From Candidatus Magasanikiibacteriota bacterium (GTDB lineage Bacteria; Patescibacteriota; Patescibacteriia; Magasanikbacterales; GWA2-37-8), in NCBI GenBank assembly GCA_036744835.1, contig DAIOHD010000001.1:399860-463859 (forward strand): a stretch of 64,000 nt of DNA. Reading direction: 5' to 3'. The position numbers and the translations under genes are program-made. Shown piece by piece: positions 9,341 to 56,481 of the stretch. A model generated the notes under the pieces. It saw nothing but the letters and a program-made list of their open reading frames with translations. It ran no database searches and had not been told where the DNA came from. Position 1 is the first letter of the stretch. Every line of letters begins with the position of its first letter.

Positions 9341-9655
9341 ATGATGGACAGACAAATGTACTCGGTAGATGCTACTTGTGCGAAATGTGGCGCTCATATT
9401 TCTGAGCTTCCTTTCCAACCAAGCGGTGATCGCCCAGTGTATTGTTCTGACTGCAATCGTGAATTCCGCAACCGCAACCGTGATGACAGAGGCGGACGTG
9501 GATTCAACAATCGTGATCGCGGTCCAAAACAAATGTTTGATGTAGATGTTGTATGTGCAGGTTGTGGTGCCAAAATCACCAAATTGCCTTTCATGCCAAG
9601 AGATGGTGGAAAACCTATCTTGTGCATCGATTGTTTGAAAAAACAAAGAGCATAA
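9341..9655 (+). CDS. tandem zinc-ribbon protein with RG/RGG-rich linker (hypothetical nucleic-acid-binding)
   Basis: Two copies of C-x2-CG..I..LPF.P....P(V/I)(Y/L)C.DC are separated by RNRNRDDRGGRGFNNRDRG. Confidence 0.6.
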   Translation: MMDRQMYSVDATCAKCGAHISELPFQPSGDRPVYCSDCNREFRNRNRDDRGGRGFNNRDRGPKQMFDVDVVCAGCGAKITKLPFMPRDGGKPILCIDCLKKQRA

Positions 9656-9663
9656 AACAAAAA

Positions 9664-9690
9664 ATCACTCCTTCGGGAGTGATTTTTTAT
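9664..9690 (+). terminator. intrinsic terminator (ATCACTCC-TTCG-GGAGTGAT + T6)
   Basis: Perfect 8-bp stem with a UUCG loop and a U-tract. Confidence 0.85.
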
Positions 9691-9691
9691 A

Positions 9692-9772
9692 TCCCTCCCT
9701 CTGCCTGAGAGGGAGGTTAGGAGGGAGTGGGAGAGACTCCTCCCTAACCCTCCTCTTGAAGAAGAGGAGGGA
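9692..9772. repeat. three consecutive CCCTCC/GGAGGG hairpins (GC-rich repeat element, intergenic copy)
   Basis: H1 CCTCCCTC..GAGGGAGG, H2 TTAGGAGGGAG..CTCCTCCCTAA, H3 CCCTCCTCTT-GAAG-AAGAGGAGGG. A paralogous segment lies at 9966-10002 inside mnmA. Confidence 0.8.
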
Positions 9773-9820
9773 ATTTTGTAATCTAGAGACCATTGAAAAG
9801 AACGAAATTCTTTGTTATAA

Positions 9821-10942
9821 TTGCTCTATATGAAATCAAAGAAAAAGCCTGTAAAGGTGTTAGTTTGTATGTCCGGTGGTGTAGATTCGTCTGTCGCCGC
9901 CGCTCTTTTGGTTAAGGCCGGATATGATGTTACCGGCGCGTTTATGGTGAATTATGATGAGGTTTCCTCCTCTGCCCGAGAGGGGGCTAGGGGGAGTGGG
10001 AGCTGTTGGCGAGGGGATTATCAAGATGCTCTGCGAGTCGCTGCTAAACTTCATATTCCACTTCTACGTTTGAATTTTGTTCGGGAATACAAAAAAGCGG
10101 TTTTGGATTATATGTACGCTGAATATAAAAAAGGTAGAACTCCAAATCCGGATGTTTTGTGTAATAAATTTGTGAAGTTTGGGTTTTGGTTGAAAAAAAC
10201 AAAAGAACTCGGTTTTGGCTATATGGCGACGGGTCATTACGCGAAGTTAAGTAGAAAGTTGAAAGTAGAAAGTAGAAAGTTAAAAGATTTCGAAATTAAA
10301 TTATTACAAGCGAAAGATGACAACAAGGATCAAACTTATTTCTTGCATCAATTAAATCAAAATCAATTAAAACACGTCATGTTTCCTGTTGGCGGATATA
10401 TCAAAGATGAAGTTCGTAAATTGGCGGATAAATTTGATTTACCAACTGCCAAAAAAGAAGAAAGCATGGGTATTTGTTTTATCGGAGAAGTGCCAATGAA
10501 AGAATTTTTGCAGAAAAAAATAAAAACTAAAAAAGGAAAAATAATTTTAAATAATAGTAAAGAAGTTTTGGGCGAACACGAAGGCATCCCTTTTTATACT
10601 ATCGGACAAAGATTGGGTTTGAATAATAAACCTTATTTTGTGGTAAAAAAAGACGCAAAGAAAAATATTTTGTTTGTTGGATATGAAAATGACGAGGAAC
10701 TTTTGAAAAAAGAAATTGAAATAGAAAATGTGAATTGGATAAGTGGACAAAAGCCGAAATTGCCGTTAAAATGTGAAGTAAGGCTACGACACAGGCAACC
10801 CTTACAGCAGTGTCATTGCGAGACCGCAGGTCGCGGTAATCTTATTGTAAAGTTTAGTAACCCTCAAAAAGCAGTAACACCCGGTCAGTTTGCGGTTTTA
10901 TATAGCAAAGGTGTTTGTCTTGGTGGGGGAGTTGTAAAATAA
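9821..10942 (+). CDS. mnmA: tRNA-specific 2-thiouridylase MnmA
   Basis: PP-loop SGGVDSS, the motifs GRTPNPDVLCNK and NKDQTYFL, and the C-terminal AVTPGQFAVLY...GGG. The true start is probably ATG 9830. Contains two repeat-derived in-frame insertions (see findings). Confidence 0.9.
   Translation: MLYMKSKKKPVKVLVCMSGGVDSSVAAALLVKAGYDVTGAFMVNYDEVSSSAREGARGSGSCWRGDYQDALRVAAKLHIPLLRLNFVREYKKAVLDYMYAEYKKGRTPNPDVLCNKFVKFGFWLKKTKELGFGYMATGHYAKLSRKLKVESRKLKDFEIKLLQAKDDNKDQTYFLHQLNQNQLKHVMFPVGGYIKDEVRKLADKFDLPTAKKEESMGICFIGEVPMKEFLQKKIKTKKGKIILNNSKEVLGEHEGIPFYTIGQRLGLNNKPYFVVKKDAKKNILFVGYENDEELLKKEIEIENVNWISGQKPKLPLKCEVRLRHRQPLQQCHCETAGRGNLIVKFSNPQKAVTPGQFAVLYSKGVCLGGGVVK
10247..10280 (+). repeat. tandem AGTAGAAAGT x3 repeat inside mnmA coding sequence
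   Basis: AAGTTAAGTAGAAAGTTGAAAGTAGAAAGTAGAAAGTT encodes KLSRKLKVESRKLK, an insertion relative to the E. coli MnmA alignment. Confidence 0.7.
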
Positions 10943-17170: not shown

Positions 17171-17596
17171 ATGGTAAAAACAGTAAAAGCTACATTGAAA
17201 AATGTAAAAAATAAAGATGAAAATCGCGCCGTTGGTCGCCGTAAATCGGCTTCTGCTCGTGTTCGTATAGGCAAGGGTGAAGGTAAAATTACGGTTAACG
17301 GCAAAGATTACAAAGAATATTTTTCTTTTTTTGAACAAGGTGTTGTTGTAACTCCTCTAAAAACCTTGGCTAAAGAAAAAGATTTGGATATTTCTGTAAA
17401 AGTGAACGGTGGTGGTAAAAAAGGACAAGCCGTAGCCGTGCAACACGGCATTGCTCGTGCTTTATTAAAATGGAACGAGGACTTTAGAAAAACCTTGAAA
17501 GCCGCCAATTTATTAACTCGAGATCCTCGAGTTAAAGAAAGAAAGAAGCCGGGTTTGAAAAAAGCTCGCCGTGCCCCACAGTGGTCGAAGCGTTAA
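17171..17596 (+). CDS. rpsI: 30S ribosomal protein S9
   Basis: ...GRRKSASARVRIGKGEGKITVNG...GLKKARRAPQWSKR, the characteristic S9 C-terminus. Confidence 0.95.
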   Translation: MVKTVKATLKNVKNKDENRAVGRRKSASARVRIGKGEGKITVNGKDYKEYFSFFEQGVVVTPLKTLAKEKDLDISVKVNGGGKKGQAVAVQHGIARALLKWNEDFRKTLKAANLLTRDPRVKERKKPGLKKARRAPQWSKR

Positions 17597-17718
17597 GCGA
17601 GACCAGTGTGGCAGAGGGGGGTCGGGGGAACTGGGTGTTCCACCGCGGAGGAGAGCAGCGAAGCGCTGAGAACCGTGGGTTCTTAGAGCGCGCAGCGCCC
17701 GCAAATGGTCCAAACGTT
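17597..17718 (+). pseudogene. GC-rich degenerate second copy of the rpsI 3' end (frame-disrupted remnant ending ...LRARSARKWSKR*)
   Basis: AGA GCG CGC AGC GCC CGC AAA TGG TCC AAA CGT TAA aligns codon-for-codon with the native rpsI end AAA GCT CGC CGT GCC CCA CAG TGG TCG AAG CGT TAA. About 65% GC versus about 30% for the window, and an in-frame TGA lies upstream. Confidence 0.55.
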
Positions 17719-17738
17719 AAACTATTACTTCAAAAAAG

Positions 17739-17765
17739 CACTCCCAATTTGGGGGTGTTTTTTTA
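17739..17765 (+). terminator. intrinsic terminator (CACTCCC-AATTT-GGGGGTG + T8)
   Basis: 7-bp stem followed by a U-tract, directly after the rpsI remnant. Confidence 0.7.
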
Positions 17766-17774
17766 TTTGTAATA

Positions 17775-17803
17775 TTGACTTTTCCTTGAATATATGCTAA
17801 TAT
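17775..17803 (+). promoter_or_regulatory. sigma-70 promoter TTGACT-17-TAATAT for the DUF218 gene
   Basis: TTGACT at 17775-17780, a 17-nt spacer, TAATAT at 17798-17803, then SD AGAGGGG. Confidence 0.7.
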
Positions 17804-17846
17804 ATTCTGTTAACGTTCATTAACATTATTAGAGGGGAATAAAGTC

Positions 17847-18434
17847 ATGGAAGACAAGCAGGTTCTCGGTTTTATTTTTGTGCCTGCCGAACAAGTGGAA
17901 ACACAGGACAAACTGTCCGCTCGGACCATTGCGCGCTTGGAGAAAGCGTTGCAGATTCACCGGAAAGGAGAACATGTCTTTTTCGTAGTTTCCGGCGGGA
18001 TATTCAATCCGCCCGAGATTCAGACGCAACCGGCCGGCAAACTGATGAAGGAATGGTTGATAGCCCAAGGAATCAACCAAGACCTCGTTCTTGTTGAGGA
18101 TCGATCGCTTGATACCTACGAAAACATCGAGAGGTCAATGGCTTTGATAGGTACCAAGATCTGGATGAAACATTTTCCTTTCCAATACCAAGGGGTAACC
18201 TATGTCACGCCGTGCGAAGGAAAAGTGGTGATCGTGAGCGATCACTGGCACCTTAAACGGTTTAAGCGATTGATGGTGTGCAGCAAGATTCCGATTACTT
18301 TTGAAGAATCGAGATATAAACTTGGTTTCTTGGGAATCGTTAAAGAGATCGTTTTTCTTGTTATCACGTATTTTGATCCCGAAGGAGAGGGGTATTTAAA
18401 TTGTTTCAACCGAGAGAGACGTCGTCAGAGTTGA
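17847..18434 (+). CDS. DUF218 (YdcF/SanA/ElyC-like) domain protein, GC-rich (about 48% GC) gene
   Basis: ...VVSGGIFNP...EAGKLMKEWLIAQGINQDLVLVEDRSLDTYENIERS matches the DUF218 core (SGG...E..S.DT.EN). Composition differs sharply from the flanking genes. Confidence 0.8.
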   Translation: MEDKQVLGFIFVPAEQVETQDKLSARTIARLEKALQIHRKGEHVFFVVSGGIFNPPEIQTQPAGKLMKEWLIAQGINQDLVLVEDRSLDTYENIERSMALIGTKIWMKHFPFQYQGVTYVTPCEGKVVIVSDHWHLKRFKRLMVCSKIPITFEESRYKLGFLGIVKEIVFLVITYFDPEGEGYLNCFNRERRRQS

Positions 18435-54843: not shown

Positions 54844-55005
54844 CTATTCCATTCCTATACTATCCAATGGTTCTTTGTGACCACATATATCACAGACATA
54901 TTCCTGATCTTTTATAGTCATCTTGATTAAGCAAGCTCGGCAAACAATGGTTTCTCTGGTTTCGTTCTTGGTATCCTCGATTTTTTTTTCAGTAATCCCA
55001 TCCAT
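54844..55005 (-). CDS. hypothetical 53-aa zinc-ribbon protein (CxxC...CxxC)
   Basis: MDGITEKKIEDTKNETRETIVCRACLIKMTIKDQEYVCDICGHKEPLDSIGME with SD AGGAGG. The ORF-track version starts at an upstream Met. Confidence 0.5.
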   Translation of the reverse strand: MDGITEKKIEDTKNETRETIVCRACLIKMTIKDQEYVCDICGHKEPLDSIGME

Positions 55006-55183
55006 ATTTTTCCTCCTTTCTTTTTCTTTTCGAGTTGATAAAAAGATACAAATGATAAAAGTACGGCGCAACTACCATGGTTATTTTAACCAAAATAAAA
55101 AAGATAATAATTGCCAGTACTCCAAAAATTTTTCCCAGCATTCTCCAAAAAAAACCGATTAACCTTTCAAACTTTTTACGCAT
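54989..55183 (-). CDS. hypothetical 64-aa membrane protein
   Basis: ORF from the track. SD GGAGAAGGGGGG. One TM helix. Its end overlaps the start of the zinc-ribbon gene. Confidence 0.4.
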   Translation of the reverse strand: MRKKFERLIGFFWRMLGKIFGVLAIIIFFILVKITMVVAPYFYHLYLFINSKRKRKEEKYGWDY

Positions 55184-55614: not shown

Positions 55615-55751
55615 TTTTTACCTCTCTTAAATAATTTGTTTTATTATCTTAAGTTTATTTTATTTTCAGATTTTGTCAAATAAAAAAGAAAGGCGGTCCT
55701 CCTTGACAGAACAATGTGAAAACATTATCCCAGGAAAAACCGCCTAAAAAG

Positions 55752-55985
55752 CTACCCCGCTGCATGTTGAAGATTCGCCTCCTTAAATTCAGAGATTTGT
55801 TTTACAGAAAACTGCATACTGCAATCTCTGCATTGGTAGCCACACCTGATAGAAAAGATCGGCTTGATCAGCATGACCAGTCCTTTGTGAGTTTGGTGTG
55901 AAAGTTCACTCAGGACGATGTTGGCACGGCATTGTTCCAAGGGCCCGCCGCACAAAGGGCACCTTTTTGTGTTTTCCGGTTTCAT
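55752..55985 (-). CDS. YgiT/MqsA-type zinc-finger small protein, GC-rich gene
   Basis: MKPENTKRCPLCGGPLEQ...SIRCGYQCRDCSMQF follows the CPxCGG...x30...C..C..C pattern of the YgiT-type zinc finger. SD GGAGGT 4 nt upstream. About 50% GC. Confidence 0.55.
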   Translation of the reverse strand: MKPENTKRCPLCGGPLEQCRANIVLSELSHQTHKGLVMLIKPIFSIRCGYQCRDCSMQFSVKQISEFKEANLQHAAG

Positions 55986-56077
55986 TTTTACCTCCCCCGG
56001 AAGTTGATAAAGGGCCTCTTTTTAGCATCTCTTTATCTTAATTCTATTATAACAGCTCTGTTTAAAAAAGCCAATAT

Positions 56078-56106
56078 TGACAATACCTTTAAACCCTGCT
56101 AATATT
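56078..56106 (+). promoter_or_regulatory. sigma-70 promoter TTGACA-17-TAATAT for the structured RNA
   Basis: TTGACA at 56078-56083, a 17-nt spacer, and TAATAT at 56101-56106. Divergent from a minus-strand TTGGCT-17-TATAAT that serves the zinc-finger gene. Confidence 0.7.
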
Positions 56107-56111
56107 TTTTA

Positions 56112-56447
56112 GTTGTTCTTTAGAAGCCCGCGCAGCCAGCGGGATTACCTGTCCGGAACGGTAATGGGAATGCCGAGATTTCCAAGATCCTAGGCTCCTT
56201 GGAAGACATTAGCCTCCCCTAGCAAAGACGGATTGGCAAATGTCATGGCTGTATCTTCAGCTGTCGTCCGTGGCCGCTATAAATGCCGGAGCAAAAACCT
56301 CCTGAAAAATCTCAGGGTTTGGCCTGGGTGAGCTCCGAATGGATTACCTGCAGGCAAAAGTCAGGGTAAGTGCAATCTGCGCTTATAAAAATCCAGGTCG
56401 AATTCCCCTGTCTCGGGGGTCTGGCTAGGCTAAAGAACAATTTCCAG
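56112..56447 (+). ncRNA. unclassified GC-rich structured RNA of about 335 nt (13-bp terminal helix 1-13/320-332, 3' tail UCCA)
   Basis: About 52% GC in a roughly 30% GC genome, with no ORF of 60 aa or more in any frame. 5' AGUUGUUCUUUAG pairs with 3' CUAAAGAACAAUU. Seven internal hairpins. Flanked by a consensus promoter and an intrinsic terminator. Confidence 0.55.
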
Positions 56448-56481
56448 GCGCGTCACGCCATCCAGTGCGCGCCTTTTTTAT
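56448..56481 (+). terminator. intrinsic terminator (GGCGCG-N15-CGCGCC + T6)
   Basis: 6-bp GC stem and a U-tract immediately after the RNA 3' end. Confidence 0.8.

Follow-up and report, generated by a model that had tools for sequence, protein, structure and literature searches.

A probable family of stand-alone structured RNAs, absent from Rfam 15, in the Patescibacteria

A stretch of 64,000 nucleotides (nt) from a Candidatus Magasanikiibacteriota bacterium (contig DAIOHD010000001.1, positions 399,860 to 463,859), hereafter called the window, contains a GC-rich islet between the asnS gene and a divergent gene for a small zinc-finger protein. Here, we report that the plus strand of this islet (56111-56442) is probably a stand-alone gene for a stable, trans-acting structured RNA, whose family is absent from Rfam 15 and widespread in the candidate phyla radiation (CPR)/Patescibacteria. 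The first-pass annotation, which was made from the sequence alone, had called the element an unclassified structured RNA, and this description is upheld by comparative evidence across about 16 lineages. Five long-range helices covary in the homologues, namely P1, H4, PK (a pseudoknot relative to H4), P-z and P-x, and the single strands at their junction (AAG, RGGAAUA, AAAG, GAA, GAAUUCC and GGGUCUG) are nearly invariant. The window RNA carries all the family-defining helices, together with the blocks AAG, RGGAAUA, GC-AAAG, GAA-UGG, GAAUUCC and GGGUCUG.

The islet (55690-56481) has a GC content of 46.6% against a window mean of 34% (z=3.4), and the RNA portion by itself reaches 50.6%. The only region of the window that is richer in GC is 17300-18300. 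Its elevated GC had been noticed at first reading and tentatively ascribed either to the composition bias of RNA genes in AT-rich genomes, with which it fits, or to horizontal acquisition. The back-to-back promoters proposed then were both recovered by the promoter scan, each with a 17-nt spacer and an extended -10 TG, and they lie 2 nt apart. The longest open reading frame (ORF) on the plus strand within the RNA has 44 amino acids (aa), consistent with the claim that none of 60 aa or more is present, and the predicted terminator is in place; in a close relative (locus L003; the locus numbers are our own), its stem stays paired at the base through a compensatory change. A single-sequence fold has a minimum free energy of -122.9 kcal/mol (z=-3.0), which is better than that of all 100 shuffled sequences.

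Exact look-up of asnS and of two proteins homologous to the small ORF led to five loci (L001-L005) with the gene order of the window, in which the RNA region is conserved above the asnS DNA and shows compensatory changes. One of them, L003, carries a second, strongly diverged copy of the RNA in tandem, with its own promoter and terminator, and the blocks common to these two paralogues were used as motifs for further scans. The genome scan with the strict motif gave the true members L012 and L019, as well as L007, which was recognised later, and its other matches were mostly chance or coding ones (EFPIFMGVW of a NuoM-like protein). The metagenome scan gave 42 loci, about 18 of which are RNA genes with a terminator directly after, the rest being chance or coding matches. 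Full-length comparison relied on nhmmer and on extraction by anchors. The hidden Markov model (HMM) of the family recovers full-length members at E=1e-20 to 3e-58 and finds exactly one copy in the window (56112-56441, E=1.6e-55). The family occurs in about 16 distinct lineages. Its members range from 192 nt (L027) to about 390 nt, because peripheral hairpins are gained and lost between them. The cluster to which asnS of the window belongs carries the name Candidatus Magasanikbacteria, and L032 belongs to an ACD aquifer genome; therefore, the hosts are taken to be CPR bacteria.

The structure is carried by covariation. In the core alignment, which is spliced and has 87 columns and 20 sequences with the conserved blocks as anchors, 97.6% of the 540 cells pair; both partners vary in 22 of the 27 pairs, and double changes are seen in 160 cells. 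Not one of 500 shuffles attains these values, sliding the register lowers the pairing to 29-47%, and strands taken from the same sequence pair much better than strands from different sequences. The examination of homologues that the first-pass annotation had proposed has thus revealed compensatory changes. For the full model of the window RNA, 98.2% is paired in the five closest relatives, with six compensatory pairs. The features of the RNA and its surroundings are listed in Table 1.

Table 1. Location of the RNA, its helices and conserved strands, the adjacent features and the related elements of other loci (window positions unless a locus is named).
Feature	Position	Strand	Evidence or remark
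Structured RNA, P1 5' strand to P1 3' strand, 332 nt	56111..56442	+	nhmmer, structure model, covariation
P1 5' strand, 13 base pairs (bp) with 56430-56442	56111..56123	+	8 of 8 scored P1 pairs change on both sides
P1-H4 junction: AAG, hpA (56127-56143), hpB (56144-56165), block GGGAAUG	56124..56172	+	Alignment
H4 5' strand CCGAGAU, pairs with 56410-56416 GUCUCGG	56173..56179	+	Covariation
hpC, size variable across the family, directly 3' of the H4 5' strand	56180..56204	+	Alignment, model
PK 5' strand CCUAGC and invariant AAAG, pairs with 56424-56429	56218..56227	+	Pseudoknot relative to H4
Branch P-b, closed by ACGGA/UCCGU	56228..56271	+	Short hairpin in minimal members, longer in large ones
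P-z 5' strand GGCC, pairs with 56396-56399 GGUC	56272..56275	+	Covariation
Branch P-c, closed by CGGAGC/GCUCCG	56287..56337	+	G-C to A-U compensatory in L003, L012, L019
Branch P-x, closed by UGGAUU/AAUCCA	56340..56395	+	Covariation
Conserved single strand GAAUUCC(CCU), P-z 3' to H4 3' strand	56400..56409	+	Invariant in all members; part of the search pattern
Conserved single strand GGGUCUG, H4 3' to PK 3' strand	56417..56423	+	Partly selected by the search pattern
PK 3' strand (56424-56429), then directly P1 3' strand (56430-56442)	56424..56442	+	Covariation, model
RNA-gene promoter, TTGACA-17-TAATAT with extended -10 TG	56077..56105	+	Promoter scan; ends 4-5 nt before the RNA
RNA-gene intrinsic terminator, GGCGCG...CGCGCC and U6	56447..56479	+	Sequence; terminator-like Rfam alignment; compensatory change in L003
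Zinc-finger-gene promoter, TTGGCT-17-TATAAT with extended -10 TG	56046..56074	-	Promoter scan; back to back with the RNA promoter
77-aa Zn-ribbon ORF (CPLCGG...C..C)	55752..55985	-	GGAGG 7 nt before ATG; neighbour of the RNA, not part of it
Zinc-finger-gene terminator, long hairpin GGCGGU...ACCGCC and U run	55683..55744	-	Sequence; compensatory pairs
Paralogue copy 2, 389 nt	L003 3322-3710	-	Between copy 1 and asnS; TTGACA-17-TATAAT promoter and terminator
Paralogue copy 2, 389 nt	L012 3810-4198	+	Between copy 1 and asnS; TTGACA-17-TATAAT promoter and terminator
RNA "M"	L068 3600-3876	-	GC-rich; minimum free energy z=-5.05; terminal helix of about 24 bp

The 13-bp helix that joins the ends of the RNA (AGUUGUUCUUUAG/CUAAAGAACAAUU), already recognised in the first pass, is real, and its sequence differs in nearly every lineage. 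H4 is formed by the 5-9 nt after the RGGAAUA block and the nucleotides directly 5' of GGGUCUG; every one of the 20 sequences has 5-9 bp there, 100% of the cells are paired, and the 16 lineages compared show 13 different strands (for example, CCGAGAU/GUCUCGG in the window, UCGGAC/GUCCGA in L031 and CUAUGGAAG/UUUCCAUAG in L037). In PK, the six nucleotides that precede AAAG pair with the six that follow GGGUCUG, as in CCUAGC/GCUAGG, CUUGGC/GCCAAG and CCGAGC/GCUCGG. Ten distinct strand pairs are found among the 16 lineages, 99.2% of the cells are paired and 4/6 pairs change on both sides. Since the 3' strand of PK runs straight into that of P1, the two helices can stack. P-z (GGCC/GGYC) encloses a mini-hairpin, P-c and P-x and is paired in 98.8% of the cells; double changes occur in L037 (AGCC/GGUU), L007 (GGUC/GACC) and the second paralogue c2 (UACU/GGUA), and G-U pairs in 10 of the 20 sequences fix the strand. 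P-x (UGGAUAUC/GAUAUCCA and variants) has 12 distinct strands among 16 lineages, with 5/8 pairs changing on both sides, and the closing pairs of P-c vary by lineage (GGAA/UUCC, GACC/GGUC). In the second paralogue, H4, PK and P-x differ with compensation and P1 (GUUCUUUAG/CUAAAGAAC) is identical to that of copy 1.

As for the junction between P1 and H4, the family consensus of its block is RGGAAUA, of which GGGAAUG is the variant of the window clade. The hairpin hpA covaries family-wide, as read from the sequences, and both hpA and hpB are absent in L037 and L042; therefore, they are dispensable. The window clade also lacks AGAG before the 3' strand of P-x. Four blocks, RGGAAUA, GCAAAG, GGCC and GAAUGG, lie outside the selection imposed by the search and yet are conserved. 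Several readings of the interior were abandoned. The internal hairpins listed at first reading stand only in part, since some are not kept in relatives, such as 95-104/125-134, which overlaps the pseudoknot strand, and the 3' single-stranded UCCA is present in the closest relatives and not elsewhere in the family. A 3'-end hairpin CCCC-N6-GGGG was dropped once H4 and P-z had been seen, because its letters form one side of a long-range helix, and in view of the same helices GGUCGAAUUCC was no longer read as a T-loop. On inspection, no consistent covariation was found for the pairings GGCCGU/CUGGCU, GGAAU/AUUCC, the hpA loop with the 3' strand, or CUCUC with AGAG or GGGU.

Then, does this RNA belong to a known family? 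At the gathering score, cmscan with Rfam 15 gave zero matches in the entire 64-kb window, tRNA included, and ARAGORN found nothing there. A window (1-64000) without tRNA, rRNA or any Rfam family at that score is unusual for a genome of about 1 Mb. The 35 loci of relatives likewise gave no gathering-score match at the RNA. When the threshold was relaxed to E<=10, a 1-kb region of the window gave noise and terminator look-alikes only, and no family was matched by the window RNA, by two relatives, L027 and L032 (sequences of 216 and 366 nt), or by the 63-nt 3' core, with a floor of roughly 10-15 bits. The search against Rfam that the first-pass annotation had asked for thus returns no known family at either threshold, and no description of the RNA family was found in the literature searched, sequence-motif queries included. 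Some RNase P RNAs of the CPR would escape such a search. According to Lui et al. (2021; PMC8172020), they are frequently under the Rfam thresholds, RNase P RNA was lacking at these thresholds in 10 of 35 complete CPR genomes and the candidates needed heavy manual refolding; type-A-like RNase P RNAs were still recovered in every CPR genome with RF00010. Consequently, a negative cmscan alone cannot exclude RNase P, and the structure was therefore examined.

The strand order P1, H4, hpC, PK(5'), P-b, P-z, H4', PK', P1', which is supported by covariation, matches the helix order of RNase P RNA. With respect to its catalytic domain, H4 maps to P2, hpC to P3, PK to P4, P-b to the P5 branch, P-z to P15 and the junction to J2/4. 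In both RNAs, P1 encloses everything, the P2-like helix is directly followed by the P3-like one, the 3' strand of the P4-like helix stands just before that of P1, a branch follows the 5' strand of PK like P5 with the S-domain, and the last domain is closed by a helix (here GGCC/GGYC) in the manner of P15. The two also have in common conserved, purine-rich joining strands around the pseudoknot and peripheral helices that vary in presence between lineages, and the gene is GC-rich, stand-alone and 190-390 nt long, again as in RNase P. The consensus of RNase P RNA has the conserved regions CR-I (GGAAAGUCC, with a bulged U in P4) and CR-V (ACAGAA..CCGGCUUA), which are universal in the three domains. 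In contrast, CR-I, CR-IV and CR-V are missing from the present family, CR-I and CR-V being absent in 20/20 members. Its P4-like PK has no bulged U and only the G-C and C-G pairs (2/6) fixed, while the other 4/6 pairs, as well as all scored pairs of the P2-like helix, covary. Moreover, the family has a junction of 10-100 nt from P1 to H4, with up to two hairpins and RGGAAUA, and three hairpins inside the P15-like helix in place of P16/P17; it shows no covariance-model similarity at E<=10 and has tandem paralogues. Given these differences, we treat the RNA as RNase P-like in its predicted fold and not as a member of the RNase P family. The first-pass judgement, made from motifs missing near P4, that RNase P RNA falls short as an identity agrees with this.

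A stricter kinship has to be considered, in which the RNA would be the extremely diverged rnpB of these lineages, with the architecture kept and the universal core sequences replaced. The helix-for-helix match of topology, including PK by P1, H4 by hpC and GGCC/GGYC at P15, speaks in favour of it, as do its size, its GC-richness and a promoter and terminator of its own, which give the gene an rnpB-like look. There are also short resemblances to the RNase P consensus (AGGAAUACCGGG versus AGGAAAGUCCGGG, GGCU.A directly 5' of the P1 3' strand, and GAAU after the P15-like helix). Furthermore, neither the 64-kb window nor the loci of relatives (about 245 kb) gave a canonical RNase P RNA at the Rfam gathering score, and 10/35 complete CPR genomes are without one at the Rfam thresholds (PMC8172020). 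However, CR-I (GGAAAGUCC, bulged U) and CR-V (ACAGAA..CCGGCUUA) are absent, the P4 equivalent lacks the bulge and has 2/6 pairs fixed, H4 and PK covary freely, and 10-100 nt are inserted between P1 and the P2 equivalent. No RNase P model scores at E<=10 on three members or the 3' core, two tandem diverged copies exist in L003 and L012, the gene is absent from the site in a close relative, and RF00010 recovered a type-A-like RNase P RNA in every CPR genome (PMC8172020). Diverged rnpB is thus quite unlikely.

RNase MRP RNA offers a precedent for a P1-P4 pseudoknot core that is kept while acting on other substrates, and for two related RNAs coexisting in one genome. MRP RNA, however, keeps CR-I/CR-V, is eukaryotic and has no sequence similarity to the family, so that the relation is one of analogy only. 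That the family could be a second RNase P-like ribozyme lineage in bacteria, either a rebuilt RNase P type or an MRP-like, RNase P-derived paralogue that processes another RNA, appears doubtful.

Other known RNAs were considered as candidates and rejected. For tmRNA, which is marked by a tRNA-like acceptor and T-arm with a tag reading frame and had been discounted from the outset, ARAGORN finds none in the window, L066, L067, L068 or L070, and Rfam is also blank. 6S RNA is a rod-shaped helix, about 180-200 nt in length, that is opened in its middle by a large bubble; the present model is a multi-branched pseudoknotted fold, and no Rfam match was found. Group I introns are characterised by a P3/P7 pseudoknot, a P4-P6 domain between P3 and P7, and exons of a host gene. 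Here, Intron_gpI does not match and the topology is unfit, since the large domain sits between PK5' and H4' and not between the H4 5' strand and PK5'; L044 covaries against the look-alikes CCGUCAAAU, GACUA and AGAUAU, no tRNA or rRNA exons flank the RNA, and it has its own promoter and terminator. The resemblance to H69-H71 of 23S rRNA is confined to short motifs, whose order differs. Finally, tRNA introns at position 35/36 have been described in Patescibacteria (PMC13011429), and a tRNA with such an intron was rejected in that neither a D-arm nor an anticodon arm exists in the 5' part and L037 and L042 do without hpA/hpB.

The anatomy of the gene recurs across the family. Most members with upstream sequence have a TTGACA-type -35, a 17-nt spacer and a -10 (TAnnnT) ending 3-9 nt before P1, and a GC-rich terminator follows 5-12 nt after P1 in all members. 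The neighbours vary by lineage and stand on either strand (dnaG, metG, tatD, suhB, mreB, polX, efp), dnaG (three lineages) and metG (two, L025 and L044) being the only recurrent ones. Because the neighbours differ in this way, the RNA shows the pattern of a trans-acting gene and not that of an asnS leader. A dnaG gene adjoins the RNA in L031, L049 and L054: in L049/L054 it lies about 80 nt downstream on the same strand with the terminator between, and in L031 it is divergent. In L042, a tRNA gene lies 90 nt upstream.

Could the RNA nevertheless be a cis-acting leader or riboswitch-like element of asnS, or of aminoacyl-tRNA synthetase genes generally? In the Magasanikbacteria clade, asnS follows it on the same strand at a distance of 111 nt; L025 and L044 have metG beside it, and in L007 a paralogue of a class II synthetase is nearby. 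However, a strong intrinsic terminator, which does not overlap P1, follows it, asnS has its own promoter-like site, and a second RNA gene intervenes in L003. The metG gene is convergent in L044 and divergent in L025, and the downstream gene is unrelated or on the opposite strand in most lineages. In addition, there is no T-box match (RF00230), as the first-pass annotation had also judged, and L071 has asnS without the element. A role as a leader is therefore extremely improbable.

The asnS/zinc-finger site itself is occupied differently among close relatives: some have no RNA there, others one copy or a tandem pair of paralogues, and others a different RNA. In L070-L072, whose asnS and helicase are 82% and 79% identical to those of the window, asnS and the zinc-finger gene are divergent and about 177 nt apart with no RNA gene between them; the spacer is AT-rich (e.g. 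L071 940-1117). Therefore, even a narrow clade shows gain, loss or relocation of the RNA at this site. In the more distant relatives L068 and L069, which have the same asnS/zinc-finger/helicase synteny, the spacer holds an unrelated RNA of about 275 nt, termed "M", which resembles the window RNA in promoter type, P1 start (GUUGUUCUUUG) and terminator. RNA "M" lacks the core blocks of the family, is not matched by the family nhmmer search and has an alignment z-score of 1.5-2.1. A 137-aa ORF is called next to it in L068. In L066 and L067, there is no room for the RNA, or no match.

This variation bears on the proposal of the first pass that the RNA and the divergent zinc-finger protein form a functional pair, either a ribonucleoprotein (RNP) or a regulator with its target. 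Their promoters are back to back and 2 nt apart, both genes are GC-rich, the arrangement is kept in the window, L003, L004, L012 and L019, and the 5' untranslated region (UTR) of the zinc-finger gene is perfectly conserved. Against it, L070-L072 have the zinc-finger gene 177 nt from asnS and no RNA gene, L068 and L069 hold the unrelated 275-nt RNA at the site, L066 and L067 offer no room or no match, and the zinc-finger region is near none of the 13 family members outside the clade. The zinc-finger gene is always followed, on its own strand, by small ORFs and a UvrD/PD-(D/E)XK helicase. Synteny largely refutes the pairing, since the protein gene occurs without the RNA and the RNA members of other clades occur without the protein gene adjoining, and we regard a functional pair as very unlikely.

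The zinc-finger ORF is present as first described, with a strong Shine-Dalgarno sequence (GGAGG). Whether or not the RNA adjoins, it heads a string of small ORFs, the UvrD/PD-(D/E)XK helicase and DciA. It has two close homologues, and a profile search of 1.84 billion representatives found five remote ones of 72-84 aa, which keep the motif KxCPxCGGxLKxC...GL...SFRxGYxCxxC. The possibility that the ORF is a mere artefact of an RNA was thereby rejected: because diverged proteins of 72-84 aa keep the motif, it represents a real, very small protein family. The 1720-aa protein P0039 has six stretches matching the profile (residues 956-993 and five others), and hence the fold may also occur as a repeat module. 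The homologues elsewhere are likewise GC-richer than their own loci.

Its assignment to the YgiT/MqsA type was not borne out. In Pfam/NCBIfam, only sub-threshold generic Zn-ribbon matches were found (Lar, Rad50-hook, Zn_ribbon_8); YgiT_finger (TIGR03831) reaches 11.7 bits against a cut-off of 20.2 in the homologue P0002 only, with no match for the window protein, and there is neither an MqsA match nor a helix-turn-helix (HTH) domain, for which 77 aa leave no room. The ORF resembles YgiT/MqsA antitoxins and generic Zn-ribbon micro-proteins in having two CxxC knuckles in a protein of <90 aa. It differs from the antitoxins in that the knuckles are about 40 residues apart, two extra Cys are conserved, and both the HTH domain and an adjacent toxin gene are missing; its family is a handful of CPR proteins, for which the YgiT_finger, Lar, FmdB and Zn_ribbon models are all under the cut-off. 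Some of its features are odd for a coding gene. The substitutions by codon position are [14,11,19], a weak third-position bias, compared with [32,4,134] for asnS, and the GC content at third codon positions is 0.53 versus 0.26 in the neighbouring genes. RNAalifold gives ten compensatory pairs in the transcript among four sequences (55752-56040, minus strand), and the first 25 codons, like the 5' UTR, are perfectly conserved. The compensatory pairs suggest that mRNA structure constrains the transcript besides coding. Between the zinc-finger gene and the helicase lies another small Cys-rich ORF (54844-55071, minus strand, 75 aa, CxxC...CxxC), the counterpart of which in L019 (1943-2326, plus strand) has 127 aa and two CxxC...CxxC units.

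The varied occupancy of the site also raises the possibility of a fast-turnover family of regulatory small RNAs (sRNAs), or of a mobile RNA cassette (e.g. of a defence system or a transposon), instead of a housekeeping RNA. Close relatives differ in the content of this spacer, as described above; the two paralogues c1 and c2 and RNA "M" share promoter type, P1 start (GUUGUUCUUU) and a similar terminator, with different interiors; and L005 has a Y1 transposase gene at a distance of about 3 kb. However, none of the loci has an adjoining effector gene (reverse transcriptase, TnpB, IscB, recombinase), and no flanking repeats were seen. Motif scans and blastn found no true homologue in 2.9 million viral contigs or 50,697 phage records, with one chance coding match. 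In addition, AAU of RGGAAUA, GCAAAG and UGG of GAAUGG are invariant across genomes of 34-55% GC, which is unusual for base-pairing sRNAs. On balance, this explanation is unlikely.

We therefore return to the stand-alone structured RNA as the probable nature of 56111-56442. It has a near-consensus sigma-70-type promoter and an intrinsic terminator to itself, and folds into a compact pseudoknotted core in which P1 abuts PK, H4 abuts hpC and the 4-bp P-z closes a three-hairpin domain. The invariant junction may form a binding pocket or an active site for a partner common to these bacteria and, because it is read in this way, our best guess is that the RNA is a ribozyme or the RNA of a small RNP, acting on another cellular RNA. 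It would be neither a cis-regulator of asnS nor a partner of the zinc-finger protein.

Several points weigh against this interpretation. The terms "stable" and "trans-acting" are drawn from gene anatomy, and the assignment as ribozyme or RNP RNA rests on an analogy of architecture and on the amount of invariant junction. The invariance of the 3' core is partly due to selection by the retrieval motif CCAGGYNGAAUUCC...GGUCUGGC derived from it, and locating the helix strands by anchors and best-pairing choice inflates the percentage of paired cells somewhat. The family was compared as 20 sequences, and its taxonomic breadth rests on about 16 lineages. Moreover, the tandem paralogue pairs present in L003 and L012, together with the presence or absence at the site, fit a regulatory sRNA or a mobile cassette better than a single-copy housekeeping ribozyme.

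Some further features of the window deserve mention. Within its GC-richest region, a stretch of about 120 nt (17590-17710, plus strand, up to 58% GC) comes directly after the stop of ORF 17171-17596, the product of which ends in ...RRAPQWSKR and looks like ribosomal protein S9. A terminator-like hairpin follows at about 17735-17765, and Rfam gave no family for the stretch even at E<=10, with terminator look-alikes only. The stretch may be a further small RNA that has escaped annotation, or else a 3' UTR with structure. GC-rich inverted repeats (CCCTCCCTCTGCC..GAGGGAGG..GGAGGGAGTGGGAG) occur at 9690-9780, in the spacer before ORF 9821-10942, and at 9965-10010. The similar copy inside that ORF would add a short insert (..SSSAREGARGSGSCW..) to its product. 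Besides, the small ORF 9342-9655 (plus strand), a GC-rich micro-protein gene, encodes two CxxC...CxxC zinc-ribbon repeats with an R/D/G-rich linker.

Among the orphan large bacterial RNAs known from comparative genomics (raiA, OLE, ROOL, GOLLD, HEARO) and the Hgc RNAs, which are GC-rich RNA genes of AT-rich genomes, the window RNA finds its counterparts as a GC-rich, ORF-free island in an AT-rich genome, with covarying helices, invariant junction nucleotides and its own promoter and terminator. None of the Rfam models of raiA, OLE, ROOL, GOLLD and HEARO matches it, and the family is set apart from RNAs of the raiA/OLE/ROOL type by its CPR host range and its RNase P-like architecture with double long-range pairing. 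Structured RNAs that are both large and highly conserved are seldom found, and new biochemistry has come from each one so far. The present family occurs in CPR genomes, which are tiny and keep little that is dispensable. For annotation, it indicates that GC-rich "gaps" in such genomes are left unannotated or called as spurious ORFs, as with the 137-aa ORF of L068, and 64 kb that are empty to Rfam at the gathering score show how little of the RNA content of this lineage gets recognised. The topology of the RNase P catalytic domain without RNase P sequences makes it a testable question whether the RNA is a new ribozyme, a rebuilt RNase P or an RNP scaffold.

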